A stretch of DNA of 53,414 bases. Origin: Prorocentrum cordatum. Its lineage: Eukaryota. The stretch is taken from the NCBI GenBank assembly GCA_963575745.1, contig CAUYUJ010000318.1, positions 62,001 to 115,414 of the forward strand, given 5' to 3'. Shown one piece after another: positions 2,901 to 44,759 of the stretch; the stretch's first letter is position 1, and each line of letters begins with the position of its first letter. Below the pieces are notes generated by a model that saw only the letters and a program-made list of their open reading frames with translations, made no database searches and had not been told where the DNA came from. The position numbers were made by a program, and so were the translations under genes.

Positions 2901-3737
2901 GCGAATCGCACAGCCTAGGAACGGAGCCCTCCGCGCACTGACGTTTCGAGCTTTTCGCTCCCGCGGCATGCTCCAAGAGGGGGGCGTTGCGGACCAACGC
3001 GCTGGCTCGAGTCGAGGTGCGGACGCCTGCGAGTGCGGCGTCCCGTTCTGCGGGCGGTCCGCGCGCGGGGCACGAGCCGATCGCATGTGAGCCGGCTGCG
3101 GGCCGCTGGCGCGTTCAGAGGCGCGCGTCCCGCAGATGTGGGCAAGCCCGTTGCAGCTGCCCCGACCCTCGAAATCGGGTGCACCTGTGGGCGGGCCACA
3201 GCCCCTTCCTGTCAAGTATATCGTGGGGCCATCGTCGGTGGCGGGGTGTATCGCACGGTCGAGGCCCCCCGTCCTTCATCCTGTCCCCGTCCCCCGCCGC
3301 CCGCAGACATCCTGCGATATGAGCTGTACCAGCCGCGGCCGAACGTTGAGGCCAGACCTGCCAAGCTATCGGATCATGTGTTGCCCGAGTCGGTTTGGAA
3401 AGCCTTCGGGGAACACGTGGGCATCTTGAAGGTCATCTTGGCCGCCTGGAGGCCATTCTGACCCTTTCGGGCCTTCTTGGAGGACGTCTTGGAGGGCTCT
3501 TGGGCCGTCTTGGAGGCCATCTTGAGCGTCTTGGAGGCCTCTTCGGCAGCCTGAGAGGCCCCGACCGCCTCCCCCGGGGGTGTGAGGTCGTCGTCCCCGA
3601 TCCGTGCTTGATGGCCCCGGGGCCCGAGGACGGGCCCGGAGAGGCCGAGGTCGAGGAGAGGCACGCGGACGGCGACGGGCACCTCGTCGGCTGCCTGGAC
3701 CTGCCTGCTGCTCCGCCGCCGCCCTTCTCCTCGGCTC

Positions 3738-3754
3738 AGCCATTTTGGCCCAGG
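3738..3754 (+). promoter_or_regulatory. Relic dinoflagellate spliced leader / probable trans-splice acceptor of the ZIP gene
   Basis: AG-CCATTTTGGCCCAGG versus SL 3' part AG-CCATTTTGGCTCAAG (15/17 identical), 83 bp upstream of the ATG and preceded by a pyrimidine-rich tract. Confidence 0.8.
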
Positions 3755-3837
3755 GCACGACCCGAGCTCTGCCCGGCAGCCCCCGCTGCCGCCGGCCGAG
3801 AGAGCGTTCCTCCCCAGCGGGTCCGCCAGCCCGCGAC

Positions 3838-6800
3838 ATGGAGGCGGTGCTGTTCCTGAGCACGCTCTTCCTGTTCCTGCTGTCGCTCGGGGGCGGCCTC
3901 TCCTCGAAGCTCGTGTCCAGCCTTGGAGCCGGCTGGGGGGGCTGTGGTGGCCCAGCAGTTGGCCCGGGCCAGCAGAGAGGGGGGCAGAACGGTCAAGCAG
4001 TGGTGAAGCGTCCTGAGCTGCCTATGGGCGCAGTCAAGCACTGTCACAGCTGATGCGCGTTATCATGAGAAGTGGTTTGGTCGAGCTTGTATATATCCAT
4101 CGTTTTTATCATACGAGCGCTGTTAGTGTGATTCGAACTTAGTGTTTTTCTCAGAGGTTGTGGTGGTAGGCAGGCCTACACGAATACCAGGACGGTCGGT
4201 TCTTGCTCCGAAAGGGGCCCCCTCATGGACACGGCTGGACGCGGCTCGAAAACCTCATAAGTTTCGATCCACAGGAGGGGTCACGGGACCGATTTTGAAC
4301 CCTATTGGCCGTTTTCTCTGGGTTGATCCAGTTTGGATTCGGCGTCACCCCAACATACACTGATACTATGTGTGCGTCGCCCCCCTCCCAGGGGCGATGC
4401 GCGCGCCGACAAATCTTATAGTAGAAGCTCCGTTGTGGGCGTTTTCTGGCCGTACCGCTCGGGAAACTATGTACTAAATGTCCAGGTCGGACGTGAATAT
4501 CCGAGCGGGACACGCGTAGCTCGAGTAATTATGTCCTTCTGCGTCCCACGGATCCCCCAGCCGCCTCCAAGTCCAGCTTGTCGCCCAAGTGGATGGACCT
4601 GGCGAACGCGGTCGCGGGGGGCGTCGTCGTGTCGGTTGCCTTGGTGCACATTCGGCGGCGAGCGAGGGGGGGAAGTGAGAAGGAGAAGGCCTTCTCAGAG
4701 GGCGGCGGGACCTCTCAGAAGCCCTCGCGTCTTCTGAGAAGTTCTCTATTTCGGGGGGGGCTTGGAGGACGTTTCAAGAGGCCAGGGGACTTCCGAGCCT
4801 CCTGAGAAGGCCCGCCCCTTCTCACTTCCCCCCTGGGATCGCCGCCGACACATGCTGGGCGAGGCCTCGGAGGGGCTGGACGACTGGAGCCTGTCTCTCG
4901 GGGCCCTCTTCGCCGGCGGCGGCGAGGGGGAGCCTGCGGGCAACGAGACGGCCCCGGCGGACCCGGCCAGGAGGTTGCACGGAGACGAGGAGCCGCCGAT
5001 GTTGCCGCTCGGCAACATTCGAGAGGAGCAGACAACGGCACCGCTACTCGTCAGATCACCCCAGCCCAACCCGAAGGGCCCAAGTTGCCCTCCATTCCCA
5101 AGGGTGGGGGGGGAAGCCCGGAGCACCGAAGACCACGGATGGGGCCCGCACGCCCCCCCAACCTGAGATTGGGGATGTTTCGCGTCGGGTTGGTGTGGTC
5201 TGGTGGGTTTACCAGCCTCGAATTTATCCCTATCCCTCAGATTGACACGCCGAAAGGCGATGACAATCTTAGGGATGCGCCCTCAAAAAATAAGGGAATC
5301 CCTAAGAGTGGCATCGTGATGAGGAGATGCCCAGCATAGGGATAGGGGTATGTTCCGGGCTGGTAGTTGGTAGTCAAACGTGAGCCTTCGACGGGCCGCA
5401 CGTAGTCTCCTGGATTCACGCCGGGGCATCCCTGGCGGCGGCGCTGGAGGCAAAGCCAAGGGGAGGGTTCCAGCGCCGATCTCTTGGGAGTCCACACGGG
5501 CATCCGAAAGTGTATTACGCAGGCCTAGAGGTTGACACCAACACCAAGATCGGCGGTGTTCCTCCACCGAGGGAGTGGGGACCCCGATCTCGGTGATGGT
5601 GGTAATATTCTGGCTTCCAAGGTGACCGAAATATTACCACCAACACCGAAGTCGAGGGTCATCTCCCCCCTGTGGAGGCAGCCCCCTGTCTTGGTGTTGG
5701 TGCCCATTTCCAGGCCTCCAATGTATGCTCATTCCGTTTTCCGTTCCTCTCAGCATGCTTTTGTTCGCGGGCTTCTTTCTGATCCTGTTCGTGGAGCAGT
5801 TCTTCGGCGGCCACGCGCACGCGGTGAACCGGGAGCCCGACGCGGGGGGCGCGTGCGCGAGTGGCGAATACGCGTCGTCCGACGACGAGTCCGACTCCGA
5901 CGAGGCCAGCGGCGGCCCGAAGAGGGACAAGGTCGAGGTGGTGCATAGGAGCGAGGTGGTCACCGCCTGGATCGAAGAAGGAACACCAGCTTTTGAGCAT
6001 ACTCGTCCAGAGCTCCGCGCGGATTTCTGCGGTCTGCGCTGGAAGCCCCCCCCGGGCGGGTTGCGCGCGCCAGGGAGGGGGGGGGGGCTCAGCGTGGTTC
6101 CAAGAATCCCGCGCGGAGCTCCAAACGTGTATGCTCATGCAGTTTTCCCCCCTTCGACCCTAGCGTCCTGTCTGGGATATTCCTGCACTCCTTCCTGGAG
6201 GGCATCCTGGAGGAGGGCCAGCTGAGACAGCGGCGACTCTCCCGCCCGGCCCGAGTCCGATCGAGCTCCATCCCCAGGCGCCCCCGGGGTCCACCCGGAC
6301 CCTTGTCTCGAGGCGGACCCGGCCGTGGCGACGAGAAGCCCCCGGGAGGTGCCAGGGAGGGCCGCCGACCGGCCCGGCCCTCCTCCGGGCATCGCCGCGG
6401 GCGTGGCCGCGTCGCTGGTCATCCTCGGCGCGATCATGGTCCACAAGTTTTTCGCCGCCTTCGCGGTCGGCAGCGCGCTGCTTCCCGCGGTCGAGCCCAG
6501 GTGGTGGTGGATCGGCAACGTCCTCTTCTCGAGGGAGCAAACGGCGTGGGCGTGGCCTGTCGGAGCTCTCCAGCTATCCAAAGTGTTGAACAAAAACAGG
6601 ACGGAGGTCTTTCGCTGTGTTCGGCCTCTGGGGGCTCTTCGCGGGCCCCAGGGCCACCGAAAAACGGCCTGGGGCGGAACACCGGCCCTGGGGAACGGGT
6701 CGGGACATCGGGGACCCTGCATTGAAGAGTTCAAGAGGTCGGATGACTGAGCTGGGTCGGCGCTGGACCCTTCTCCCCGGCGCGCGGAGCCCAGGGGGCC

Positions 6801-7226
6801 CATCGCGGATCCGAGAACACCGCGTGGAGTTCCGAACGTCTTTGCCTGTTCTGGCTGCGTGGATCCCTCGACCTTCGCTCTCAGCGGCACGGTCGGCATC
6901 TTCCTCGGGGAGGGCCTCGCGGAGGCGCTGGAGGGCCCGGCCACGGACGCGCTCATCTGCCTCGCAGCCGGCTCGCTGCTCTGCGTCGGGGTCACCGACA
7001 TGATCATGCCGGGGATCTCGGGCGGCGGGCAGTGGGGCAAGCTAGGGGGCCACATGCGAACCCTACCCCTACCCCACACGATTTCTGAGGCGAAGTGAAC
7101 CCCACCCTCCCCTTCAGAAATCGTGGGGGGTAGGGGTAGGGTTCGCATGTGGCCCCCTACAAGCGGAAGGTGATCGCATCTTTTCTGGCGGCCCTGATCG
7201 TGGCCTTCGCCGGGCTGTGGGCGTAA
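3838..7226 (+). CDS. ZIP (ZRT/IRT-like, SLC39) zinc/iron transporter, 313 aa, 8 exons
   Basis: Join 3838-3921, 4578-4651, 4854-5018, 5757-5969, 6164-6206, 6394-6528, 6877-7042, 7165-7226 (942 nt, no internal stop). Protein: MEAVLFLSTLFLFLLSLGGG...AVAGGVVVSVALVHMLGEA...LPLGNMLLFAGFFLILFVEQF...GIFLHSFLEGIAAG...AIMVHKFFAAFAVG...LFALSGTVGIFLG...LAAGSLLCVGVTDMIMP...RKVIASFLAALIVAFAGLWA*. Contains the TM4 HSxxEG and TM5 AIxxHK metal-site motifs, an acidic/His loop after TM3 and a terminal WA. Confidence 0.9.
3922..4571. mobile_element. ZIP intervening element 1 (650 bp, TIR + 6-bp direct repeat)
   Basis: CTTGGAGCCGGCTGGGGG pairs with CCCCCAGCCGCCTCCAAG; TCCAGC at 3916-3921 and 4572-4577. Confidence 0.85.
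4652..4848. mobile_element. ZIP intervening element 2 (197 bp, long TIR + 5-bp TSD)
   Basis: TCGGCGGCGA...GGGGGAAGTGAGAAG pairs with CTTCTCACTTCCCCC...TCGCCGCCGA; CACAT at 4647-4651 and 4849-4853; inverted homolog at 34595-34997. Confidence 0.9.
5019..5751. mobile_element. ZIP intervening element 3 (733 bp, TIR, with nested hairpins)
   Basis: GAGAGGAGCAGACAACGG pairs with CCGTTTTCCGTTCCTCTC (15/18); flanks AACAT (5014-5018) and AGCAT (5752-5756). Confidence 0.8.
5521..5717. mobile_element. Fold-back element nested inside ZIP element 3
   Basis: CACCAACACCAAGA / TCTTGGTGTTGGTG and inner TGGTGGTAATATT / AATATTACCACCA arms; AGGCCT at both ends. Confidence 0.75.
5970..6163 (+). mobile_element. 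ZIP intervening element 4 (194 bp), GA...AG intron with long TIR
   Basis: GATCGAAG...TGAGCATACTCGTCCAGAGCTCCGCGCGG pairs with CCGCGCGGAGCTCCAAACGTGTATGCTCA...CTTCGACC; splicing TG|GA...AG|C restores VVTACVLSGIFLHS. The direct repeat is too decayed to define. Confidence 0.8.
6207..6388. mobile_element. ZIP intervening element 5 (182 bp, TIR + 5-bp TSD)
   Basis: CTGGAGGAGGGCC pairs with GGCCCTCCTCCGG; GCATC at 6202-6206 and 6389-6393. Confidence 0.85.
6529..6871. mobile_element. ZIP intervening element 6 (343 bp, TIR + 5-bp TSD with one mismatch)
   Basis: TCGAGGGA pairs with TCCCTCGA; TCTTC (6524-6528) and CCTTC (6872-6876). Confidence 0.8.
7043..7159. mobile_element. ZIP intervening element 7 (117 bp, near-perfect hairpin + 5-bp TSD)
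   Basis: TAGGGGGCCACATGCGAACCCTACCCCTACCCC...CACGATTTCTGA pairs with TCAGAAATCGTG...GGGGTAGGGGTAGGGTTCGCATGTGGCCCCCTA; CAAGC at 7038-7042 and 7160-7164. Confidence 0.95.
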
Positions 7227-7262
7227 TCAGCTGTCCACGCGAGCGCGCGGGGGAGCTATACA

Positions 7263-7457
7263 TCGGGCCGGACGAAGGGGGGGGATTGGGAAAGGGGGGG
7301 TTACGAATTCTGCTGCATGCAGCTGGTTTCGGCCCCACCGAGGGGCCCATCCCTCGATACATGGGCGCCTCCGGCGCCAGGAGGCGCCGGTAAAATCAGC
7401 TACGTGAGCTGATTCTCAACCCCCCCCTTTGCTGTCCCCCCCTTTCGCCCGGCCCGA
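7263..7457. mobile_element. MITE/introner-like family A, copy 3 (probable ZIP 3' UTR)
   Basis: TCGGGCCGGACGAAGGGGG...CCCTTTCGCCCGGCCCGA; TSD ATACA/ATATA; 36 bp after the ZIP stop. Confidence 0.9.
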
Positions 7458-8149
7458 ATATAGCAGAGGTGGTCATCCCCACCGACTTTCTTCTGCTCCG
7501 TCAGATGCGTCACGCTTCGCGTACCCCGCCAGCCCAGCCAGACACAGTTTCCAGACCAGTTGTCGGGGGAAGGTGGGTCGATCCGCATACTTGTAGTGGA
7601 GCGAGCAGGCCAACAACGGTAAGGGTTTAGAGACCTGCGGCAGCTCATGGAGCCATCTCGGACCTGCACTTGGGGGCCCTTTTCGGCCTTTTCAGTCCCT
7701 CCTGAGGCCCTCTTGGGGGTCCTGGGGGCCCTCTGGGGCCCCGCCTCGTGGCCGTCTCGTGCACTGGGTGGGTCCAGCGAAAATTCGCCACGTCTTGGCC
7801 CGTGGCCGCCTCGTGGCCGCCTCGTGCGCTGGGTGGGGCCCGTCGAGGTTTCGCCACGGTGCCGCCCTTGGCCGCCGTTCGCTTGCACCACGTATACTGC
7901 ACGACATAGCTTGCTCCTCTGAGCTTACACATCCACAATGCAATGAGGTAATAACTTCCTATTTCGGGTCCACGCTGGGCAACATTCTTTTTTCCATATA
8001 TCAGTGATGTCATCAGGGAGGCCCCTGTGCCATCGCTCCCATCCGGGTTTGTCCGAACTTCGGGGATTTCAGCGATGGCGCCGCCGTCGCCGTCCCACTC
8101 ATATTCCTTGTCCTCCTCCCCGTCATTCCCCTCGAAATCTTCAATGTCA

Positions 8150-8800
8150 AAGTCCTGCTCAACCGCAGCAGGCAGCACATCTCAGTTCAGCTCTGGTGTT
8201 CCCCAGGCTATCCATATCGCGGGTCGAGGTGCCTCGCACCCCGCACAACAACCTCGCTCCCCGCACTTCCATAACTAAGTCGTGGCCAGCTGATGGTACA
8301 TACTGGCGCTGCATCGTCTTCGTCCTTCTGCACATACTCGCCTGCATCGCCAGACCGTCCTTCCACGCAGCGTCCCCAATACGTCCGTTCAGAGCTTTAC
8401 CATGGCCTTCAGCAGCTTGGTCCGTCGTCCACCTCGACTACTACTAGCAAGAGCGAGACGACGACGTGCCCTTCGCCGCGGTCGTGCACGTGCCCGTGGC
8501 CCCCACAGCGACGGGAGCCAAAGGACAATACCATAGAACCCATTCGAACGAGAACAGCATGATAAACAATAGCGACATCAAAGTGATCGACGGTGGGAAC
8601 TCAGGCCCACAGTCTCAGCTCGAGGGCCCCGTCGTGCGGACACCAGCGGAGGAGCATTCGCGACAGTCGGCATGGGTTCCTCAGGAGGTGTTGCACCAGC
8701 CCCGGCCCGCGAGTACGCCGCTGCAGCCACGCTTCCTCCCCTTCCTTGAGGAAAGTGGCTCCAACGCGAAAGCCATGGCGTAGCGCGTGGCATGGACCAC
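8150..8800 (-). pseudogene. Possible degenerate LINE RNase H / C-terminal relic
   Basis: Minus-strand peptides GGSVAAAAYSRAG...GPRAET and GHDLVMEVRGARLLCGV weakly resemble the RNase H and downstream Cys/His region of the LINE at 43.5-48.5 kb. Confidence 0.3.
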
Positions 8801-8929: not shown

Positions 8930-10340
8930 CTTGAACATCTGTCCAACGATTCCCCTCGCTTCGCGGGGTGCACGTCCGGAGTACTCTTGGGGCCATCCTG
9001 TACCGTCTTGGTTACGTCGTCGCGGGGCCTCTTGGGAGCCTCTTTGAGCCTCTTGGGAACTTCTTTGAGGCCTCTCCCCCTTCCCTCATTTTCAAACTCC
9101 CTCCCCATCCCCTTCCAGCGCCAGCTCTAATCATGGGCGCCGCCGTGACCAACTTCCACCTGGCTGGCGCTGCGCCGCACTTCGCCAATTGGGGAAAAAT
9201 GACAGTACACTCCAGTCGCTGTGTGGGCCTTGGGGGGCTTCTATGGGGCCTTTTTGGAGGCTTCTAGGAAACTTCTTGGAGGCCTCTTGGAGGTTTCTTG
9301 GGGCCCCTTGGGGGCCTCTTGGGGGCGCCCTGTGCCGTCTTGGGGCGTTTTTCTGCCGTTTCGCTCCTTCGGAGGCCGTTTTGGGGGCCTCTCGCGGCCG
9401 CCTTGGGGCCCTCTTGGGGTCCTCTCGGGCCGTTTTCGGCGCCTCTTGGACCGTCTTGGGGGCCTCTGTGGGCCGTCTTGGGGCCCTCTTGGGCCGTCTT
9501 GGAGCCCTTTTGGGGACTTTTTGGGTTGTTCTGGGGCGATGTTGGAAGCTGTTTGGGCCGTAGCGGCGAGAGCGTTGAAATATCGCCACAACCATCCGGA
9601 AATCAATGGTTTCGGCATCTGGAGGCGCAGTTGTGGGCGCTCTTAGGGCCCTGTTGGGCCGTCCTTAAAGTTTGTCGGGCCCTCTCGGGCCCATCTTGAG
9701 CCGTCTTGGCGCCCTCGTGGCCCCCCAAGGGGCCCAAAAGGTCGAAGTCATAGATTTTCTATAGGTTGTGGCAAGTTTTTGAGCCCCGGGAGGGGGTGGC
9801 CACTTTGGGCCGACGGATGTGGCGTAGCCCCTGGGGGGGGGGTAGGGGGAGACATAATGATGTAACACATTACAACATGTTGCATGTATGCAATCTTCGG
9901 ATACATTGGATACGTTGCATGAAGGCGTTCGCCAGAAAACGCTGCCGCTCAGCACGCCACCTACGGACGTGGATTCCTTTCGCTTCGCGGGGTGCACGTC
10001 CGGAGCACGTACAGTCCAGTCGTTGTCGGGCCTTTGGGAATTTCTTGGGGGCCCCTTGGAGGCCTCTTTGGGGCCTCTTGGGTCCTCGCGGGGGCGTATG
10101 GGAGGCCTCTTGGGGGCCTCTGGGGGGCCTCTTGGGCCCCCGTGTGGGCGTCTTGCACGCGCTCTTGCGTTCTCTGGTCCCTTCGGAGACTGTCTTGGGG
10201 TACTCTTGGGCCGTCTTGGGGGCCTCTTGGGGCTGTTTGGTGGCCCTCTTCGGACGTTTCGGGGCCCTCTTGAGGGCTTCTTGGGCCTTCCGGGGGCCAC
10301 TTCGGAGGCTGTTTCAGCTGTCCTGGACTTCTGACAGTCG
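8930..10340. repeat. Composite interspersed repeat: conserved blocks separated by degenerate (GGGCCTCTT/GGGCCGTCTT)n
   Basis: Blocks CGCTTCGCGGGGTGCACGTCCGGAG (~8957, ~9981, variant ~15618), TCTAATCATGGGCGCCGCCGTGAC (~9126, ~16801) and GGCCACTTTGGG...CATAATGATG (~9798, ~11711, ~17562) recur. Related tracts lie at 3400-3560, 11470-11990, 18230-18910 and 40620-41500. Confidence 0.85.
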
Positions 10341-10547: not shown

Positions 10548-10730
10548 TTGGCTCCGGACATTCAGAAAGTGGCCCGGGAGTGGCGTTCTGGGAACACGAA
10601 GAACACGAAATCGCTTACATTTGGCTCCGGGCATTCAAAATATGGCCCAGGAGTGGTGTTTTGGGAGCACGAAGAATACGAAGAAACCTACAGTTGGCTC
10701 CGGGCATTCAAAATGTGGCCTGGGAATGGC
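10548..10730. repeat. 73-bp tandem repeat, ~2.5 copies
   Basis: TTGGCTCCGG(A/G)CATTCA begins at 10548, 10621 and 10694. Confidence 0.9.
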
Positions 10731-11165
10731 CTTCCGGCAGCGCGAGAGCCCAAAAGTGGCGACAGTTATAAGAATCTGATGACCCGCTCGGATTAGTAAA
10801 TGATCCGCGGGCCCCATAGGGAGGGTGTTCCCGCTTGAGACTTCCTCGCAATTCACCCACACATGTGGCCTGGGAGTGGCTTTCTGGCAGCGCGAGAGCC
10901 CAAAAGTGGCGACACTTACAGGAATTGGATGACCCGCTCGGATTAGTAACATGATCCGCGGGCCCCATAGGGAGGGGGCTCCCGCATAAGATTTCCTCGC
11001 AATTCACTCACAGATGTGTCCTGGGAGTGGCGTTCTGGCAGCGCGAGAGCCCAAAAGTGGCGACACTCATAGGAATTGGATGACCCGCTCGGATGAGTAA
11101 CGTGATCCGCGGGCCCCATAGGGAGGGGGTTCCCGCTCGAGACTTCCTCGCAATTCACTCACAGA
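10714..11165. repeat. ~150-bp tandem repeat, 3 copies
   Basis: GGCAGCGCGAGAGCCCAAAAGTGGCGACA...GATGACCCGCTCGGAT...GATCCGCGGGCCCCATAGGGAGGG recurs with a 150-151 bp period. Confidence 0.95.
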
Positions 11166-11178
11166 CGAGGCCCAAGGC

Positions 11179-11400: not shown

Positions 11401-12094
11401 TTCCTGTTCCTGCGCGGGGTGTCCAGAGAAAACAAGAAACCCACTTTGGATGTGGGGAAAAAACCATTGGAGAATCAATGGTTTTTGGTTTCTGGAGGTG
11501 TCTTTGGGGGTCCTCTGGGGGCCGTTTTGGGGCGTCCTGGGGTCTTCGTAGGGCCTCTTGGGGCCATCTTGGGCCGTATTGGGGCCATCTTGGACCGCCT
11601 GGGGGCCATCTCGAGCCGTCTTGAGGCCCTGTTGGGCCCCAAGAGGGCCAACAGGCCCGTCATTGATTTTCTATAGGTTTTGGTAGGCTTTTGAGGCGCA
11701 GGAGGGAGGGGCCACTTTGGGTCGGCGGAAGTGGTGTGGCCCCTGGGGGGGGTTTGGGGGGGTACATAATGATGTAACACAATACAATATGTAGCAATTT
11801 TGCAATCATTGGATACATTGGAGACGTTGCATTATAGCCTCAGCTGACCTGCCTCCGGCAACGTCCGGAGCACGTAGCGACTGGGCGTCGGGTGGTTTGC
11901 TTTGCGGGTTTTCGTCGCTGGTCTGCCGTGTCGTCTTCAAGAGGAGCGGCGGATGCGCCACGCTTGGATACATTGGATACGTTGCGTTAACCCTATCCAG
12001 TTAACACCCCCCCCCCCCTTTCCGGTGGATTATAACGCCCCCGCACCCTGGATCGTTATGGCTGCACCGGAAGACCTGGCTGCGGGGACTCGGG

Positions 12095-12364
12095 GCCCAG
12101 CTAGGGCTTCGCAGGGCCTAGCAGTGCTAGGCTTTAGCAGGGCTCCGCAGGGCTCAGCAAAGCTCAGCAGGGCTTAGCAGGGCTTAGCAGGGCCTAGCAG
12201 GACTGACCAGGGCTGAGCAGGGCTTTGCAAAGCCTAGCAGGGCTCAGCAAGGCTTAGCAGGGCTTAGCAAGGCTCAGCGGGGCTTAGCAAGGCCCTGTAG
12301 GGCTTAGCAGGGACTAGCAGAGCCCAGCAGGACTCAGCAGGACTTGGCCGGGCTTAGCAGGGCT

Positions 12365-12366
<2 letters not shown>
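12095..12366. repeat. 10-bp minisatellite (TTAGCAGGGC)n
   Basis: Directly visible; resumes at 14180-14220 and 14830-15350. Confidence 0.9.
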
Positions 12367-14175
<1,809 letters not shown>

Positions 14176-14829: not shown

Positions 14830-15350
14830 CTGGGCAGGGCTTAGCAAGGCTTAGCAGGGCTCAGCAAGGCTAAACCTCGGACCGCGCTCCGGCCCACGCG
14901 TAGCAGGGTTTGGCAGGGTTCAGCAGGGCTTAGCAGGGCCTCGCAGAGCTTAGCAGGGCCAAGCAAGGCCAAGCAAGGCTGAGCAGGGCTTGGCAGGGCT
15001 TTGCACGGCTTAGCAGGGCTTAGCAAGCGCCAACAAGGCTTAGCAGGACCTAGCAGGGCTTAGCAGGGCTTAGCTTCGGACCTCGTTTGGACCAGGGTTT
15101 AGCAGGGCCTCGCATGGCTTAACCGAACTTCGCAGGGCTTGCCTCGGACCAAGCTCGGACCACGCCTACAAGACCATGGCAGGGCGTAGCAGCGCTGAGC
15201 AGGGCTGAGCAGGGCCTGCCTAGCAGGGCTGAACTAGCAGGGCTTAGCAGGGCCCTGTACAGGGCGTAGCAGGGCTTAGCAGGGTTTGGCAGGGCTTCGC
15301 AAGGCCCATCGGCCCGCAGAGCTTAGCAGGGTTTAGCAGGACCTACCAGG
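14830..15350. repeat. 10-bp minisatellite (TTAGCAGGGC)n, degenerate
   Basis: Directly visible. Confidence 0.85.
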
Positions 15351-20674: not shown

Positions 20675-22109
20675 GCTGGAGCCTGTTTTTTATTCCGGGC
20701 CGATGACGGCAATGATTTGGTGGGGGGCGGACGCGATAGGTGACGTCATGTTTCGCGCCGGCGGCGTCTGGGAATGCCCAGGAATGATGGACGACGGGTA
20801 ACACCAGCATGTCGGTGGCGATATGCACTACAACGCCTGTGTAAACCACAGTGCTTATGTACACCACAGCGCTTGTGTACACCACACCGCCGATGTACAG
20901 CACAGCAGCCGCGTGCAACACAGCGCACGTTCGTGCCACCGTGCTTGCTGGCACAACACTTTTTGTGTACACCACAACGCCTCCGTACACCACATCAGCC
21001 GTGTGCGACACAGCGCAATTATACACCACAATTTTTGCGTGCACTGCAGTGCCTGTGTACACGACGCCTGTGTGCACCACAGCAACCGTGTGCAACATAA
21101 CACCATCCTTGTCTTGTACATATATATATATGTGTAAATATAGAGAGAGAGGGAGAGAGAAAGAGGGAGAGATACATAACATGCTGGCATAAGTTTTTGT
21201 GGCAAAATGGAGCGATTGCGGATTCCAGGGGATACAATAGAGATACATTCCTATGGACAAAGGAGCGCCGCTGGAATCGACGAGTCTTCCCGAATCCGCC
21301 CTCATCACCTTAACTCCTCCAGTTTGCGTCCAGGAGCCTCCAGCTAAATAGGCCGCCCGACAACCAAGTGGACCGATTCAATCGACCATTCTGCGGTGCA
21401 CGCTGACATGCGCACTTGCGCTGTAGCGCCAACCCGCGCGACACGGGGTAACGAGGAGGAGGAGGAAGAGGAGGAGGAGGAGGAGGAGGGGAAGGAGGAG
21501 GAGGAGGAGGTAGTGGAGGTGGAGGAGGATGGAGGACGGCAGAACGTCGCATTCGATTATCGGCATTTTCCTGTCGTGGCGTCTTGTTGTCCGCAGCGGA
21601 TCCTCACGTACATGTTCTTTCTACGTGTCCTATGCACGCAGGCTTTGTGGTGTACACCAGCCTTGCGTTGCACGCGGCTTTTGTGGTGTAGACAGGCGCC
21701 GTGGCGTGCACAGGCGCCGCGGTGCACGCCAGCTTTGGTGCACACAGGTGCTGTGTTGCACATGGTTGCTGCGGTGTACACATTTACACGGGCGCTGTGG
21801 TCTACGCAAGCACTGATGTTCACAGGCGCTGTGTTCCACACGGTTGTTGCGGTGTACGCAGGCGTTGTGCTGTGCACGCGCGCTGTGGTGCACGCGGGCG
21901 CCGTGGTGTTTACAGGCGCATGGGGCAGATCGCCACCTACATGCTGGTTGCGTCGTCGTCGTCGGTCGTCGCTCGTCGCGTCGTGCGCGCGGTCGCGGTT
22001 GTGGTGCCGGAGCCACACGGCGGGGGGGGGCGTTACGTCATACCACCCCCCCGCCCTCCCCTCCTCCATGACGCCCGTCATCGCCGAGCATAAAGAATCG
22101 CGCTCCAGC
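20675..22109. mobile_element. Fold-back element with inverted 18-bp minisatellite arms
   Basis: GCTGGAGCCTGTTTTTTATTCCGGGCCGATGACGG pairs imperfectly with CCGTCATCGCCGAGCATAAAGAATCGCGCTCCAGC; (TGTGTACACCACAGCGCC)-type units at 20810-21110 are inverted at 21630-21920. Confidence 0.6.
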
Positions 22110-26050: not shown

Positions 26051-26509
26051 TCGACGGCACGTAGGGCTGCCTCGATTCCAATTCGACAGCCAGCTGGGGC
26101 CGCGATCCCGATTCGATGCGGCGCGAATGACGGGCATCAGCTAGAGCCAGCTGGACTTGGGTGCGGCGATCCGATTTGGCTTCGAGTGGGGACGCTTCGC
26201 TGGTGATCCGCGTTCGCGATTCGGTCCAGCCCAGGCCTGCCGCAGCTCGAGCAGCACTCTCAGTGCGATCATCGCGACGTGTCCACTCATTCATGGTGTC
26301 GATGGTACCATTGCTGAAGTTGCCAGCGCGAGCCCACAGCTTCCCCGTCGTCGGAGCCGCAAGCCTCAGCGTGCTCAGAGACGCATGCTTGCCCCTGTCC
26401 CGAACGACGGGCACGGGCCTCACCACGAGGGGTTAGTCGAAGCATCGGCTGCCCGCCTTGGCGATTCGTCGTGTGTTGGGCCCCGGATTCGAAACAATAA
26501 TGCCTTATG

Positions 26510-26669
26510 AACAGAAACGTTCGGAGCTCCGCGCGGATTTCTTGGATCTGCGTTGGGCCCCCCTCGCGGCGGCGCTTCCGGCGCCGCCTCTTGGCGCGCA
26601 CCGCGCGCCAGGAAGGGGGGCCGAAGTGCGGATCCGAGAAACCCGCGCGAATCTCCAACAGTTTCTGTT
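26510..26669. mobile_element. Hairpin element related to ZIP elements 4 and 6
   Basis: AACAGAAACGTTCGGAGCTCCGCGCGGATTTCT ... GCGGATCCGAGAAACCCGCGCGAATCTCCAACAGTTTCTGTT; shares GAGCTCCGCGCGGATTTCT with ~6010 and GCGGATCCGAGAA with ~6806. Confidence 0.75.
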
Positions 26670-27289
26670 TGTGCCGTTGTGTGTTCTTCCACGGATGTGG
26701 GCCAGGGGGGAGGGTTGACGTTGTCTCAAGTGCCTTCTCCTCCGAATCGACGAACATCTGTTTGGTGGAGTCAGTTGAGGAACATGTGGTACAGGTGATC
26801 TAGTGTTCTGGGTGTCTGAGCCAAGCAGGGAAGGACCACGAGCACACATGATTACATCTGGGGTGGGAGAAAAGGGAAATGATGAAAAGGAGTCCTAAGT
26901 GCGTAGAGGCGGTGGTATCTTAGGGTGGGCTTTTTGACCGAACCCGGCTGGACGTTTCCTTCTTCCAGGGATCGTTTAAACACGACGTTCACCAAATTGT
27001 CTCTTGCGCCTCCACTCCGCCGTTGCACCCCCCCGAATGATCGAGAGGAAACGGAGCGCGTCCCCGAGAGGAGACAGGAGAGGTGGGGGGCAAGCTGGGT
27101 GCGCTCGCGCCATGTCTAGCATCCTACCCCTCCCAACCATCACTTCCAATTGCTCTCATTCCCAACCAGTGGAGTTGGGTCCTTGCTTTGAAGAGACAGC
27201 GCCCCGCGTCCTTCCCGCGTCCTTCCTCCTCCTCCCGCTTCCTCCTCACATCCTGCCTCTGCCCTCCGCATGTCAACCACGTCCATCCA

Positions 27290-28175
27290 CCCCTCGCACG
27301 CTTCGTACCCACATAGGGGACTCCACCCAAGAAGCCTAGCGGCAGTGTCTGCATGGCGCACCCGCACCCGACTCGGCACACCCTTCTCACGTTTCGTGGA
27401 CCCATAGGGAGCTCCACCGAAGGCCCCAGTGGCAGGGTCCGCATGGCGCACCCGCACCTGACCCGGCGCACCTCTCATACCTTTCATAGCCCCATAAGGA
27501 GCTCCACCGAAAATTCCAGCAGCAGGGCCCGCATGGCGCACTCGCACCCGATTTGGGCACACCCCTCACACGTCTCGTGGCCCTGGAGGGAGCTTCATCG
27601 AAGGCCACGGCGCAGGGTCCGAAGGGCGCACCCGCACCCAAATCGGCGCGCCGTTTATACGTGCTGTTGCCCCACGGGAGCTTCTCCGACGGCCCCATCG
27701 ACAGGGTCCGCACAGTGACCCGCAACAGAATCGACCCACCCCTCACACGATTTGCGGTCCCACAAACAAGAGGCCCCAGCGGCAGCGTCCGCGTGGCGCA
27801 CCCGCGCCCGATCCGGCGCACCCCTCACGCGCGTACTGGTTCCATGGGGTGCCCAACGGCAGGCTCCGCACGGCGTACCCGCGCCTGGTTCGGCGCACCT
27901 TTCGCATGTTACATGGCTCCATCGGGGGCACCACCGAAGGCCCCAGCGGCAGGGTCCGCATGGCGTACCCGTGCCCGATTCGGCACACCCCTCGCACGAT
28001 TCGTGGCCCCATAGGGAGCTTCACCGAAGGCCCCAGTGGCAGGGTCCGCATGGCGCACCCGCACCTGACCTGGCGCACCTCTCATACGTTTCGTGGCCCC
28101 ATGGGGGGTTCCACCGAAGTCCCCAACGGCAGGGTCCTCATAGTGTAACTGCATTCGATTCGGCGCACCCCGCGA
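27290..28175. repeat. 90-bp tandem repeat, ~9-10 degenerate copies
   Basis: GCATGGCGCA unit starts at 27351, 27441, 27531 and 28048, with variants at 27621 and 27958. Confidence 0.9.
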
Positions 28176-34594: not shown

Positions 34595-34997
34595 TCGGCG
34601 GTGAGCCCGGGGGGGAAGCCTCCCAACCTGGCCCTCCTTCCTCCCTCCTCCCTCCTCCTCCTCCCTCCTCCTCCTCCTCCTCCCTCCTCCCTCCTCCTCC
34701 TCCTCCTCCTCCTCCTCCTCCTCCTCCTCCTCCGCCTCCGCCTCCGCCTCCGCCTCCGCCTCCGCCTCTGCCTCCGCCTTCGCCTCCGCCTCCGACTCCG
34801 CCGCGGCGTCAGCAGGGGCCTGGCCGACCTGGAGGGGCGGGCCTCGGCAGAAGGCTCGAAAGTCCCCTGGCCTTCTGAGAAATTCCTGGAGTCTTCCTCG
34901 GAGACACAGGGCACGTCTCAGAGAGCGCGAGGGCTTCTGAGAAGCCCCGCCGCCTTCCGAGGAGGGTCCTCTCCCCCCCCCCCGCGCTCGCCGCCGG
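34595..34997. mobile_element. Inverted homolog of ZIP element 2, expanded by a (CCT)n/(CCGCCT)n tract
   Basis: TIR TCGGCGGTGAGCCCGGGGGGG / CCCCCCCGCGCTCGCCGCCGG; TSD CCATC/CCAAC; internal AAGTCCCCTGGCC and CGCGAGGGCTTCTGAGA match the reverse complement of 4652-4848. Confidence 0.8.
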
Positions 34998-40415: not shown

Positions 40416-42914
40416 TGCCCAATCGGTTGCGCGTACTGGGCAGAAAAGGGAGGACGGGAAGAGGAGGATGGGGGGTGAGGCGGAAAATGGGGGGGAGAAG
40501 CATCGGTGAGGATGAGCTGAAGCGGGGCAGGAAGAGGAGGAGGGGAACGAGGAGGAAGTGTAGGAGGAGGAGGAAGAGGAGGAGGAGGGGGACACTGAGA
40601 TGAGGCTCCGGGTTATGGGGCTGGGCGCGACTCGAAAAACCGGTGTGTTCGGAGATGTCCGTTGGGATCTTGCGGGGGGGCTTCTTGCGGGCCTCTTGGA
40701 GCAGTTTCGAAGGCTCTTGGGGGCCGTTTTGGGGCCTCTTTGTGGCTTCTTGGGCGCCTCTTGGAACGTCTTGGGGGCCTCTTGGGGGGTTCTTGGGGCC
40801 TCTTTGGGGCCTCTTGGGGGCCTCTTGGGGCGTAAGGCTGGGTTTTCCGGTGCGTGGTCTCTCTCTGGAGCCCCTCTTGGGCCCGTCTCCGGGAGGTTCT
40901 TGGGCCGTCTTGGGCGGCTCTTGGGCCGTCTGGGGGCTCTCTTGGGCCGCCTTGGGCGGCTCTTGGGCCGTCTGGGGGCTCTCTTGGGCCGTCTTGGGGG
41001 CGTCGTGGAGGCCTCTTGTGCCGTCTTGGAGCAGTCTTGGGAGTTTCTTGGGCTGTCTTGGAGCGTCGGAAGGCCGAAAAGGCGAAAATGACGAAAACAT
41101 CGAAAAAACAAAAAACACAAATGAAAATCAACGATGTTGGCCTCTTGGGGCGCTCCTCGGGGGCCTCTTGGAGGTCTCTTGGGGCGTCTTGGAGGTCTCT
41201 TCGGGCGTCTTGGAGCCCTCGTGGGGCGTCTTGGAAGCCTCTTGGGGCCTCATGGGCGCTTCTTAAGGCGTCTAGGCGGACTCTTGGGGCGTCTGGGGGC
41301 CTCTTGGAACGTCTGGGAGGCCTCTTGGGGCCTTCTTGGCCCGTATTTGGGCCCTTTTGGGCCCGGAAGAGCGTCGTGAGTCGCTCGTGGTGGGCACCCC
41401 CCTCCCCCCTCCAAATCGACCGGACCGGGTTCCCGGGGGAGGGGTTTGGGGAGGGGGAAGCATCTCACACGCCGATGACCCAAGGGGTCGGCGGATTGCT
41501 TATCAGCGTGTGCTAGCCCTGTGTGTGTTTGTGTGTTTCCCCAGCGGCGGACGATTTACATATCCAGGCAAACGCACACCTGCCACTACATATTTTCCAC
41601 AACTGCTCTGACCAGGGATCGTACGATGGCGAGTTGCAGCCGTCTGCGTTACGCAATTCAGGCCCACCGGCGGCACGCAGCGCGTGTCGGTTCTCATGTT
41701 TTCGTCGTATTGAATGGCTCTGATGAACATGCACGCATTGTCGCTAGCACGCGTTCGGATGATCATGGATGGGGGGAGGAAGAGGTTGAGTAGGAGGGGG
41801 AGGGAGGAGGCAACAGCAGCAGGCGGGAACGGGAGCCAGGAGTTGGCGGCCAGCGCCATTTGCCCTCGAGGAGAATTCGTGCGGTTGCCCCCCGTTGCCC
41901 CCGCCCCCTCCAGCCATTTGTCTGGCTCGGATCGTGCCCTCGACGCTCAGGAATCGCGCTCTTGCTCTAGCTATTTTCACGACTTACTTGATAATCGCGC
42001 TATTGCTTGAGACCTCCTCGCGATTCATGCAGGACTCGCGCTTCAGCAACCCGCCTGCTCGACCTTGCCGCCTGGGCCCGCCTTTCCGACCCGCCCGTCA
42101 GGGCTTACCCCCTATCATCCTGTCTGGCTTTGCCACGTGTTTTCTGCTCCTGACCCCCCTCCTGCTAATCTCTCTCGTGCTCCATCATTCTCCATCCCCT
42201 ATCCTTCTGTTCTGTATTCCCTGTTTTAGGGGCTGCGGCAACTGCACGTGGCAGGTGAGGAAAATGTACCCCAAAGGGGGTTCGATCGACGACGAAGAGG
42301 TCGGGTATTGAGGGTGTGGGATCTGTGTGTTGAGTGGCGTGTGCGAGCATATGAAAGCGAACAGCGTTAGACTGTTTGGATTTTTCAACACCGTTATTGT
42401 TGACCCTCCTCTCTGGTGCCCATTGTGTTTTTTTCAGTTGAAGTGATCCTCCTGGGCACCTACCTTCATTTTTACAAGGGGAAGCCTGCAGGCTCAGATT
42501 GGGTTGCTGGCCCCCAGTTTACAACAGCAGCGGCTCCCCCCTGACACGCCCTCACAATTTATCGATTTGACATTCCTTTCACTTCATCAAGGAGGATCGG
42601 CCAGTAAGAGCAGGTAAGAACAAACAGTTTCAAAATGCTTGCTGTCGTTGATTATTGTCGTGGTTTACTCCGCGATCCACCCGCGACCCACCGCGCGACC
42701 CACCCTGCTCCACCCGCGACCCACCAGGGACCCATTCGTATCCGCGACCCGCGCCCGCGCCCGCCTCATTCGTATCCGCGCCTGCGGGGTGCTGCGTACT
42801 TTTTCCGCTCTGCAGGTTGGGCGACCGCGGTGCGCTCGCCCCACTGGCCGCAGACCCCCCAAGCAATCGCGCAGCTCGGACGTGTCCCTCCGTCGGTCGT
42901 TCCTTGTTCCTCTC

Positions 42915-43112
42915 TAGGCCTTTTAGATGGGATCCGACTAGATAGGGTCGGAGGAGCGCGCCGCATCGCCGATGCATCGGCGATGCGGCTCGAATTGGAG
43001 CCCGATTGTCTTCGCGCCGACGGCGCCGATGTATCGTCGACGTCCCCCATCTGCATCGGCGATGCGGCGTGACCAGCCGACCCCATCAACTCGGACCCCA
43101 TCTGGGAGGCCT
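42915..43112. mobile_element. ~200-bp fold-back element containing a perfect 30-bp palindrome
   Basis: AGATGGGATCCGACTAGATAGGGTCGG pairs with CCGACCCCATCAACTCGGACCCCATCT; GCCGCATCGCCGATGCATCGGCGATGCGGC at 42960-42989. Confidence 0.8.
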
Positions 43113-44342: not shown

Positions 44343-44759
44343 CTAGACGCTTCGCGTATCCCCACCAGCCCGTCCAGAAACGACGCCCAGGCGAGTAGAG
44401 GGTCGTCCTGAGGGGCTTTTCGGCGTCTTGGGTGCCTCGGGGGGGCCTCTTTGGGCCGTTTGGGATCCTCTTGGGGGCCTCCTGGGGGCCTCTTGGGGCC
44501 ATCTTGGGGCCTCTTGGTGCCTCCTGGGCGCTTCTTGGGGCCATCTTGGAGGAAATCGATCAAAGAAGAGGGGAGCTTCAATTAGCGCTGCCCCCTCAGA
44601 AGGCCAAAATGGGGCCAAAACCTTAGTAAAATCAATGATTTTGGCTTCAAAGAAGAGGGGAGCTTTAATTAGCGCTGCCCCCTCAGAAAGCCAAAATGGG
44701 GCCAAACCGGTGGAAGAAGAAACGCTCTAAACCACCGACGCCCAGAGGGCTGGTGGGAC
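44343..44759 (-). mobile_element. Helentron/Helitron2-like non-autonomous insert inside the LINE RNase H
   Basis: 12-bp asymmetric inverted repeats TCCCACCAGCCC (44359-44370) and GGGCTGGTGGGA (44747-44758); terminal hairpin ACGC-TTC-GCGT next to CTAG; T-runs on both flanks; internal GGGCCTCTT tract and a ~60-bp duplication. Confidence 0.55.

Follow-up and report, generated by a model that had tools for sequence, protein, structure and literature searches.

An expressed ZIP transporter gene interrupted by eight transposon-derived introns that lack canonical splice ends

Introduction

Introns that arise from transposable elements have been described in Fritillaria, Amoebophrya, Polarella and euglenids, as covered in a 2024 review of transposon-derived introns (PMC11282704); a second 2024 review gives 'other boundaries' for Amoebophrya only. 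Here, we analyze a gene of the ZIP family of metal transporters that lies in a stretch of 53,414 nucleotides of contig CAUYUJ010000318.1 (positions 62,001 to 115,414 of the forward strand). The whole stretch is called the window hereafter, and all coordinates count from its first letter. The open reading frame (ORF) of the gene runs on the plus strand from an ATG at position 3838 to a TAA at 7224–7226 and lies in pieces, interrupted by transposon-like inserts. Transcript contigs join these pieces across inserts that lack G[T/C/A]..AG ends.

In Amoebophrya A25 and A120, more than 60% of the introns are non-canonical, and the U1 small nuclear RNA (snRNA) was not found in the published analysis (Farhat et al. 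2021, PMC7789003). The introner elements described there carry inverted repeats of 8–20 nt and direct repeats of 3–5 nt, show no consistent terminal dinucleotides, and reside in compact genomes with 232–273 genes per Mb and few transposons (PMC7789003). Introners of Polarella and Symbiodiniaceae, both core dinoflagellates, reportedly form introns with a GH donor (H stands for A, C or T) and an AG acceptor, sites that derive either from the duplication or from the element (Roy et al., 10.1101/2020.10.14.339549). In Prorocentrum cordatum, introner elements were reported for 2.4% of introns and the mapping tools were limited to GT/GC/GA donors; the published GC content is 59.7% for the genome and 65.9% for the coding sequence (CDS) (PMC10666404). 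These published passages agree with the background on which the original prediction for this locus had drawn, i.e., inverted-repeat introns in Amoebophrya and euglenids and GT/GC/GA-AG introns in core dinoflagellates. No inverted-repeat-bounded, non-G..AG introns of a core dinoflagellate or haptophyte were found in our literature search, whose scope excluded subscription papers and some supplements (including Tables S1–S2 of PMC10666404).

Results

Transcript contigs define eight exact joints

Transcript evidence was taken from assembled contigs, built with 31-nt words, of four runs from four studies (X1, X2, X9 and X17), which were aligned to positions 3000–8500. X17 is labelled as a polyA RNA-Seq metatranscriptome library. 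The same eight joints were found in all four runs, with depths of the joined form of ~294 (X1), ~165 (X2), ~68 (X9) and ~8.5 (X17). Seven of the introns lie in the CDS, as the original prediction had it; an eighth in the 3' untranslated region (3'UTR) has to be added, and one of the seven, intron 6, is not a significant hairpin (see below).

All exons lie on the plus strand. Where a direct repeat spans a joint, the joint can slide through it; the ends given here are those of register 0, followed by the slide. Exon 1 (3838–3914, supported by the ORF and the RNA joints) opens with the ATG, is preceded by a 5'UTR from ~3739, and is linked to exon 2 (4571–4646) by joint 3914>4571, which skips 656 nt (GT..AA, slide 7 nt). 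Exon 2 is followed by exon 3 (4849–5015) via joint 4646>4849 over 202 nt (CA..GA, 5 nt), exon 3 by exon 4 (5754–5969) via joint 5015>5754 over 738 nt (CA..AG, 3 nt), and exon 4 by exon 5 via joint 5969>6161 over 191 nt (GA..CC, 0 nt). Exon 5 (6161–6199), with a length of 39 nt, holds the HSFLEG motif and is backed by ortholog alignment in addition to the RNA joints. It leads to exon 6 (6387–6524), which is also supported by a Pfam Zip match and by protein search, via joint 6199>6387 over 187 nt (GG..CC, 7 nt). The joint 6524>6873 then skips 348 nt (CT..AC, 4 nt) to reach exon 7 (6873–7037), and the joint 7037>7160 skips 122 nt (CA..TA, 5 nt) to reach exon 8 (7160–7261), which contains the end of the CDS and the start of the 3'UTR. 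Finally, joint 7261>7460 in the 3'UTR skips 198 nt (AT..AT, 2 nt) and leads into a 3'UTR exon (7460–7600), drawn from RNA contigs that do not resolve its 3' end. The joints thus lie at the repeat-bounded edges for which precise removal had been proposed, and not at the nearby G[T/C/A]-AG sites.

The main spliced contigs of X1 (records 1 and 4) show zero mismatches to the window over the listed pieces, ~800 nt in total. The X1 joints include that of the 3'UTR intron, and the X1 contigs start at the relic of a spliced leader described below. Among the listed contig pieces, the unspliced form of the window itself is covered without mismatch at intron 6 only. Mismatch-free contigs that span all of intron 6 and reach into both flanking exons were recovered at a depth of 5.4 in X1 (record 3, 6499–6902) and of 6.6 in X2 (record 8, 6499–6878), and a partial mismatch-free intron 6 contig at a depth of 4.6 in X9 (record 14, 6552–6704). 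In these three runs, unspliced intron 6 amounts to about 2–7% of the spliced depth, with about 2–4% in X1 and X2, the spliced form accounting for 93–98%. Intron 1 has almost no RNA-contig cover in any run.

The main transcript contigs (1549–1575 nt) continue for ~350 nt past ~7600 without a placement in 7600–8500, a region with hardly any cover. Beyond 7600, there may be an additional, long intron in the 3'UTR; a GTAAGG lies at 7619–7624.

The joined exons encode an intact ZIP transporter

Joining the window's exons at the RNA joints gives an ORF of 314 amino acids (aa; 942 nt plus stop) without any lesion. The product is identical to protein P0004, which comes from independent JGI/IMG assemblies (4 contigs), and differs from protein P0001 by the single exchange F6L, corresponding to a T3853C variant present in X2, X9 and X17. 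P0001 matches the Pfam Zip family (PF02535) with 105.6 bits against a cut-off of 35.1, over profile positions 3–299 of 323. The separate exon pieces give weak matches to the same family, the top one being 6388–6528 with E = 9e-5. The 942-nt stop-free ZIP frame expected after removal of the elements is therefore recovered as a known protein, and the gene, earlier called likely active, is joined by RNA contigs of four studies at the predicted places. All 314 codons are intact, the CDS has a GC content of 69.1%, and GC at third codon positions (GC3) is 0.94. The ZIP gene is an active, expressed metal-transporter gene.

When the 47-aa exon at 6388–6528 was used as a protein-search query, three full-length proteins of 309–314 aa were returned, one of them 100% identical over the exon. 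Near-identical proteins found in two word-based protein searches stem from transcript assemblies only (Logan and JGI/IMG), and the same two sources make up the P0001 cluster. The orthologs P0002 (253/311 positions identical) and P0003 (241/306) are colinear with the product over all seven coding joints. Beyond these two, a comparison with 1.84 billion representatives gave relatives of at most 39–41% identity. All 30 Atlas feature matches fall within the Zip family set and come from mixed taxa (Perkinsozoa, Apicomplexa, Haptophyta). When JGI metagenome contigs were scanned for orthologs at the genomic level, only three distant ZIP loci (L001–L003) came up, with 33–45% identity over short segments.

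Protein alleles of the gene are found in separate data sets (P0001, P0004–P0006); they comprise F6L, encoded at position 3853, and a change of L to F in LVI[L/F]GAIM. P0005 (207 aa, from a 1582-nt contig) begins exactly at the joint of exons 3 and 4, with L in place of Met107, and may represent an isoform with a difference at intron 3.

The inserts are small transposon-like elements

Each of the eight inserts contains an inverted repeat of 7–60 nt. Intron 1 (3915–4570) is bounded by the direct repeat GTCCAGC (3915–3921 / 4571–4577) and carries an inverted repeat of 26 nt with 85% complementarity (3922–3947 / 4546–4571). Intron 2 (4647–4848) shows the duplication CACAT (4647–4651 / 4849–4853) and an inverted repeat of 52 nt, 83% complementary (4652–4703 / 4797–4848). 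Intron 3 (5016–5753) is composite, with a direct repeat CAT, decayed from A[A/G]CAT, 7-nt termini GAGAGGA / TCCTCTC, and nested hairpin elements, found by inverted-repeat search, at 5210–5365 and 5521–5717. Intron 4 (5970–6160) has the termini TCGAAG / CTTCGA and arms of 60 nt (5994–6053 / 6078–6137, 73%), with no direct repeat. Intron 5 (6200–6386) shows the direct repeat GGGCATC and an inverted repeat of 29 nt (6206–6234 / 6361–6389, 72%) with an 11-nt perfect core. Intron 6 (6525–6872) has a direct repeat CTTC, decayed from [T/C]CTTC, and an inverted repeat of 8 nt only (TCGAGGGA at 6529–6536 / TCCCTCGA at 6864–6871). Intron 7 (7038–7159) combines the duplication CAAGC with a near-perfect inverted repeat of 53 nt (7043–7095 / 7107–7159, 92%). 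Intron 8 (7262–7459), in the 3'UTR, holds an element TCGGGCCGG...CCGGCCCGA with arms of ~35 nt within a decayed 5-bp duplication ATACA / ATATA; the repeat at its joint is AT, and its removal takes the element plus 3 nt, not plus 5.

The direct repeats at the joints measure 7, 5, 3, 0, 7, 4, 5 and 2 nt for introns 1 to 8, compared to a mean of 0.74 nt for random position pairs in the window, with P(≥5 nt) = 0.009. Repeats of at least 5 nt at four of eight joints have a chance of ~6e-7, and six of the eight joints have repeats of 3–7 nt. The modal target-site duplication is 5 bp. It is perfect in CACAT, GCATC, CAAGC and GTGTC (the last one from an extra copy at 764–961) and bears one mismatch in A[A/G]CAT, [T/C]CTTC and ATA[C/T]A; TCCAGC is 6 bp long and the duplication of element 4 is lost. 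Since insertion, 3 of 35 duplication positions have diverged. The direct repeats named by the original prediction (TCCAGC, CACAT, AACAT/AGCAT, GCATC, TCTTC/CCTTC and CAAGC) are the ones recovered at the RNA joints, and its view that the duplications have decayed while the exons are free of lesions stands as well, with these 3 positions diverged, one duplication lost and every codon of the frame intact.

Terminal inverted-repeat scores are at or above the 95th percentile of 20,000 random position pairs in all eight introns, although intron 5 only ties with it in this limited measure. The inverted repeat is clearly beyond chance in seven of the eight, the exception being intron 6. Of 28 inverted-repeat pairs found in the window, the 25 longest were listed, and 8 of these fall in the introns of this gene, which make up ~5% of the window. 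Folding of whole introns as RNA, compared to dinucleotide shuffles, resulted in z-scores of -2.5, -8.7, -10.8, -6.2, -2.5, +0.4, -10.8 and -9.8 for introns 1 to 8 (-11.7 for intron 7 in a second fold). Folds are accordingly strong for introns 2, 3, 4, 7 and 8, weak for introns 1 and 5, and absent for intron 6. The proposal that every interruption is bounded by terminal inverted repeats (TIRs) holds insofar as all eight contain an inverted repeat; for intron 6 this is reduced to 8 nt without a significant fold.

Extra copies within the window were found for the families of introns 2, 4 and 8. By window self-comparison, the intron 8 family has two full-length copies on the plus strand, one 90% identical (379–574) and one 85% identical with the perfect 5-bp duplication GTGTC (764–961). 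Element 2 has a diverged copy on the minus strand (34833–34996), and fragments of element 4 lie near 26500–26660. RNA contigs whose match starts at 4652, the first base of the inverted repeat of element 2, number 17 in X1, 12 in X2 and 10 in X9, with 2 more in X17 starting at 4654. The upstream sequence of these contigs is unrelated, and they therefore represent other transcribed copies of the element 2 family. Elements 2, 3, 7 and 8 are matched by many other RNA contigs at 90–95%.

No Pfam domain was found in eight ORFs from introns 1, 3 and 6, and exact-match scans of viral contigs with the cores of elements 7 and 8 gave zero matches each. In the ZIP gene, Rfam at E ≤ 1 returned sub-threshold look-alikes of miRNA precursors, i.e., generic hairpins, with no group I, group II or tRNA-like match. 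The inserts are small non-autonomous DNA transposons, similar to miniature inverted-repeat transposable elements (MITEs), with TIRs, 5-bp duplications, further copies, lengths of 122–738 nt and no Pfam domain in the ORFs tested.

Two further features of element ends were seen. The hairpin at 5521–5717 in intron 3 and a hairpin element at ~42917–43112 both begin and end with AGGCCT, which suggests another family of AGGCCT-bounded elements. In addition, a TCG start together with a CGA end is seen in five of the eight elements (TCGGCGG at 4652, TCGAGAGG at 5019, TCGAAG at 5972, TCGAGGGA at 6529 and TCGGGCC at 7263). These ends may define one transposon superfamily with 5-bp duplications, or may be due to chance in GC-rich DNA.

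No permitted register yields canonical intron ends

For each intron, every register permitted by the direct repeat was listed and checked for G[T/C/A]..AG. Such ends are possible in none of the eight introns in any register compatible with the RNA joint, and there is no dinucleotide pattern common to the eight. The possible ends of intron 1 are GT..AA, TC..AG, CC..GT, CA..TC, AG..CC, GC..CA, CC..AG and CT..GC; those of intron 3 are CA..AG, AT..GC, TT..CA and TC..AT; those of intron 7 are CA..TA, AA..AC, AG..CA, GC..AA, CT..AG and TA..GC; and those of intron 8 are AT..AT, TC..TA and CG..AT. Intron 2 has an AG end in no register, and intron 5 a G[TCA]..AG pair in none. Intron 4 has no direct repeat, and its joint is thus pinned at GA..CC. 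A neighbouring GA..AG option for this intron would drop Ser180, a residue that is kept in P0004, P0001 and both orthologs.

Every nearby in-frame canonical alternative deletes or inserts residues, with loss of VHMLGE, LGN or AL or an insert of 11 aa. Canonical splicing at nearby G[T/C/A]-AG sites is contradicted by the RNA joints and the proteins, and assignment to the U2-type G[T/C/A]..AG class of dinoflagellates fails for all eight introns. U12-type introns have AT-AC or GT-AG ends, a conserved 5' motif and a branch-site motif. Neither [AG]TATCC at the 5' end nor TCCTTRAY was found in any of the eight introns, and intron 8 reads AT..AT.

The full listing of registers agrees with the earlier conclusion, reached by sliding, that G[T/C/A]..AG is unavailable to elements 1, 2, 3, 5, 6 and 7, and it reproduces the damage to conserved segments that nearby canonical pairs had been said to cause. 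The number of introns lacking spliceosomal boundaries, put at six by the original prediction, has to be raised: those six stand, and element 4 with its GA..CC ends is non-canonical too.

In seven of the eight introns, the pyrimidine content is higher in the last 40 nt than in the first 40 nt (means 0.64 and 0.39). This is a weak lead that hints at spliceosomal recognition; the 3' pyrimidine richness is explained by left arms that are purine-rich in either orientation of the element.

A spliced-leader relic lies at the 5' end of the gene

A motif scan allowing 2 mismatches identified a relic of the dinoflagellate spliced leader (DinoSL), AGCCATTTTGGCCCAGG, on the plus strand at 3738–3754, identical at 15 of 17 positions to the 3' part of DinoSL and with an AG just before it. 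The DinoSL sequence was taken from PMC2606063 and from the supplement of PMC10666404. This was the one match in the window, with 0.09 expected, and 7 of 100 shuffles contained any match. The four main contigs start at 3739, 3743, 3760 and 3767, so that the relic marks their 5' boundary.

A genomic spliced-leader relic at the 5' end of a gene is a published mark of dinoflagellate retrogenes (PMC5585692, PMC12014239). Judged by this mark in its sequence, the ZIP gene is most likely a dinoflagellate retrogene, and since such a gene would be born intronless, all eight introns were probably gained later. Together with the style of the surrounding genome, the relic indicates that the host is probably a free-living dinoflagellate with a large, GC-rich genome. 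Haptophytes such as Emiliania huxleyi, whose introns contain repeats of 10–11 nt, were considered as a source too. The E. huxleyi genome has 65% GC and many GC-AG introns (PMC4028052). In view of the relic and of the very low retention of introns in the ZIP gene, a haptophyte source appears less likely.

The window is gene-poor and rich in repeats

The window has a GC content of 60.0%, contains one detectable gene in 53 kb and is repeat-rich, with many tandem arrays. The GC contents of the window and of the CDS resemble the values published for P. cordatum. Pfam searches of 16 long ORFs and 148 others in the window yielded no usable match; the only hit, to DUF6234, was below threshold. GC3 periodicity over the window did not reveal a second clear gene, and Rfam at the gathering threshold gave zero matches in the window.

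A (TAG)n microsatellite of ~603 copies spans 1.8 kb (12365–14175) and accounts for the low GC content and high GC skew of this bin; arrays of a 10-nt unit, TTAGCAGGGC, lie alongside at 12134–12367 and 14901–15074. Tandem arrays with units of 10–11 or 21 nt (GGGGCCTCTT / GGGCCGTCTT) are located at 3500–3540, 9381–9515, 10043–10167, 11500–11650, 40676–41339 and 44422–44549. The array just upstream of the ZIP gene (3184–3551) is covered by many RNA contigs with mismatches, and such arrays are therefore transcribed elsewhere too. Longer repeat units (151 nt x 3.1, 90% identity; ~90 nt x 6 plus 3.5) are arrayed in tandem in 10713–11172 and 27288–28169. A cluster of long imperfect inverted repeats at 20859–21869 consists of GTGTACACCACA-like units, with arms of up to 80 nt placed 590–750 nt apart.

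Discussion

The ZIP gene is transcribed, its joints are exact, its introns offer no canonical ends and the inserts are transposons. Taken as a whole, the data are in our judgement likely to reflect a retrogene that was invaded eight times, and whose inserts are removed at the RNA level as introns of the type formed by the introner elements of Amoebophrya. According to this model, retroposition would first have given an intronless ZIP gene tagged with a spliced leader. Eight insertions of small non-autonomous TIR transposons, seven in the CDS and one in the 3'UTR, would have followed, mostly with 5-bp duplications, and each would behave as an intron. In the pre-mRNA, the inverted repeats would pair and bring both junctions to the base of one helix, by which the excised segment would be defined. 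Departure of the element together with about one copy of the duplication from the RNA would then restore the reading frame that existed before the insertion.

Removal at the RNA rather than the DNA level is well supported. The transcripts come from the window locus or from identical element-bearing copies, since the X1 contigs are free of mismatches while 3 of 35 duplication positions have diverged and one duplication is lost. All eight elements are still present in the assembled DNA, and retention of intron 6 together with the near-nil cover of intron 1 fits pre-mRNA better than contaminating DNA. A role of the hairpins in guiding removal is suggested by correlation only. The joints lie at or inside the duplication that adjoins the inverted repeat. 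In intron 4, the predicted helix spans both cut sites, and the fold has the final base of the exon paired with that of the intron. The intron with detectable retention, intron 6, is at the same time the sole intron without a significant hairpin, a single observation that favours structure-aided removal. As to the catalyst, a spliceosome with relaxed end recognition appears somewhat more likely than an endonuclease-ligase route.

Several points weigh against the model set out above. With a z-score of +0.4 for intron 6 and of only -2.5 for introns 1 and 5, hairpin guidance is not universal, and there is no fixed ruler, as removal takes a total of 3, 5, 6, 7 or 9 nt in addition to the inverted repeats. 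Un-excised copies of the element families are abundant in RNA contigs, e.g., with a depth of 1301 over 4656–4839 in X1 compared to 294 for the exons; hairpin and inverted repeats are therefore insufficient for removal, or these copies reside in other contexts. The kind of library is not on record for X1, X2 and X9, X17 alone being labelled RNA, and contig-level data carry no strand, true ends or true levels. Among the runs searched, at most 0.34 of the sampled words of the stretch were present, which is approximately the share of exons and UTRs, and no DNA run with the locus was found. The assignment to a dinoflagellate rests on one 17-nt relic and on genome style.

The best-surviving alternative, although in our view an unlikely one, also places removal at the RNA level but without a spliceosome: the helix formed by the inverted repeats would be cut at its base by a structure-specific endonuclease, with the exons then joined by an RNA ligase, similar to the pathways of tRNA, HAC1/XBP1 or euglenids. 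The lack of G[TCA]..AG ends in all eight introns speaks for this route, as do the pinned GA..CC joint of intron 4, with both cuts at the foot of one predicted helix, and the five introns that fold far better than shuffles (z of -6 to -11). Furthermore, the nonconventional introns of euglenids leave as circles by a mechanism that is perhaps spliceosome-independent (PMC11282704). However, the cut geometry relative to the stem is not constant, and intron 6 has no significant helix, yet its spliced form makes up more than 90% of the depth. Pyrimidine-rich 3' ends in seven of eight introns resemble those of spliceosomal introns, the comparable introns of Fritillaria are reportedly handled by the U2 spliceosome (via PMC11282704), and no Rfam family reached the threshold.

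Far less credible is an element-free paralog or allele as the source of the transcripts, in which case the window copy would be dead and riddled with transposons. In dinoflagellates, many genes have multiple copies and retrogenes occur commonly (PMC5585692, PMC12014239), no DNA run with this locus was found that would allow its copies to be counted, and two protein alleles, F6 and L6, exist. Yet records 1 and 4 of X1 match the window without mismatch over the listed ~800 nt; the X1 joints include that of the UTR intron, and the X1 contigs start at the relic leader. Given the divergence of the duplications at 3 of 35 positions and the loss of one, dozens of differences at silent and UTR positions would be expected in a paralog that split off earlier than the insertions. 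A dead copy is also at odds with 314 intact codons at a GC3 of 0.94 and with the mismatch-free contigs from exon 6 through intron 6 to exon 7 in X1 and X2.

We regard programmed or somatic excision from the DNA, comparable to that of the internal eliminated sequences (IES) of ciliates and with the mRNA transcribed from a cleaned copy, as slightly less probable still. The loss of the element plus one copy of the duplication is the product expected from precise transposon excision, and no DNA run containing the locus was found. The assembled DNA nevertheless retains all eight elements, while a spliced form making up 93–98% of the depth in three runs would require the excised form in most nuclei. 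In addition, the removal of intron 8 comprises 3 and not 5 nt besides the element, no duplication remains at intron 4 as a guide, and the unspliced form of intron 6 occurs in the same libraries.

Finally, the least plausible explanation treats the joints as artefacts of reverse-transcriptase template switching across hairpins with short direct repeats, or of assembly collapse; non-canonical 'junctions' flanked by direct repeats are a known signature of template switching (PMC2923612, PMC4176328), 3–7 nt repeats are present at six of eight joints and most elements are strong hairpins, but intron 4 lacks microhomology and intron 8 has only 2 nt, the joined form is overwhelming in all four studies and recurs in separate JGI/IMG assemblies, retained elements would destroy an ORF that is ~80% identical to and colinear with two orthologs, and 31-nt contig words cannot bridge a repeat of 0–7 nt unless reads hold the joint.

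Eight RNA-verified introns without spliceosomal end signals are thus combined in one gene, and the unslidable joint of intron 4 fixes its cuts to the nucleotide, which makes this intron well suited to studies on the recognition of such introns. If the host is indeed a free-living, large-genome dinoflagellate, loss of the U1 snRNA cannot be the general explanation for introns of this type, and the phenomenon becomes testable in cultured organisms for which many RNA data sets exist. The spliced-leader relic would date all eight introns after retroposition and thereby provide direct evidence of continuing transposon-driven intron gain in the lineage. Gene-prediction pipelines for dinoflagellates that accept GT/GC/GA-AG only would mis-model the ZIP gene.

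A wider proposition, which we put forward tentatively and consider possible but doubtful, is that free-living dinoflagellates with large genomes possess a general pathway that removes hairpin transposon insertions from pre-mRNA at any boundary, possibly independent of the spliceosome. If true, an element landing in an exon would do almost no harm, and the massive intron gain in this lineage would become easier to explain; moreover, a considerable class of dinoflagellate genes would have been modelled wrongly or overlooked by pipelines restricted to GT/GC/GA-AG.

Comparison with known intron systems

Among the described systems, the introners of Micromonas and Aureococcus are likewise DNA transposons with TIRs and duplications that make introns, there at genome scale, but they keep canonical motifs, one of which comes with the element while the duplication supplies the other. 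Fritillaria borealis (Henriet et al. 2019, via PMC11282704) shares with the ZIP gene recent MITE-derived introns without GT-AG; its preferred ends, in contrast, are AG-AC and AG-AT, whereas none is common to the introns studied here, and Fritillaria is an animal. The nonconventional introns of euglenids resemble the ZIP introns in their non-canonical borders, paired intron ends, duplication-like junction repeats and suspected MITE origin (PMC11282704). Their pairing of CAG (+4 to +6) with CTG (-8 to -6), however, is found in none of the eight introns in any register, and they belong to another lineage.

With the introners of Polarella, Symbiodiniaceae and P. cordatum, the ZIP gene has in common that introns stem from insertions of transposons with TIRs and duplications, that several families are involved and that duplication lengths vary. 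The GC-rich, long-repeat style of the genome and the spliced-leader relics marking retrogenes are also those of core dinoflagellates, including P. cordatum. Unlike the GH..AG introns reported for these introners, not one of the eight ZIP introns can be read that way.

The closest match is Amoebophrya. As in the published description of its introns, those of the ZIP gene are validated by RNA, lack consistent end dinucleotides, have both ends linked by inverted repeats and bear short direct repeats over the exon/intron boundaries; they belong to repeated MITE-like families without a transposase ORF, and many of them occur in one gene. Each of the defining features was found at this locus, i.e., RNA validation, non-canonical ends, an inverted repeat, a direct repeat (in six of eight introns) and repeated families free of ORFs. 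Differences exist in the inverted repeats, which are mostly longer in the ZIP gene (26–60 nt versus 8–20 nt), in the direct repeats, which are modally 5 bp versus 3–5 nt, and in the genomic setting, as the window, rich in repeats and poor in genes, has a single detectable gene in 53 kb versus 232–273 genes per Mb; a density this low speaks against a genome of the Amoebophrya type. The ZIP introns are probably Amoebophrya-type introner-element introns with non-canonical ends in a different, probably free-living dinoflagellate host.

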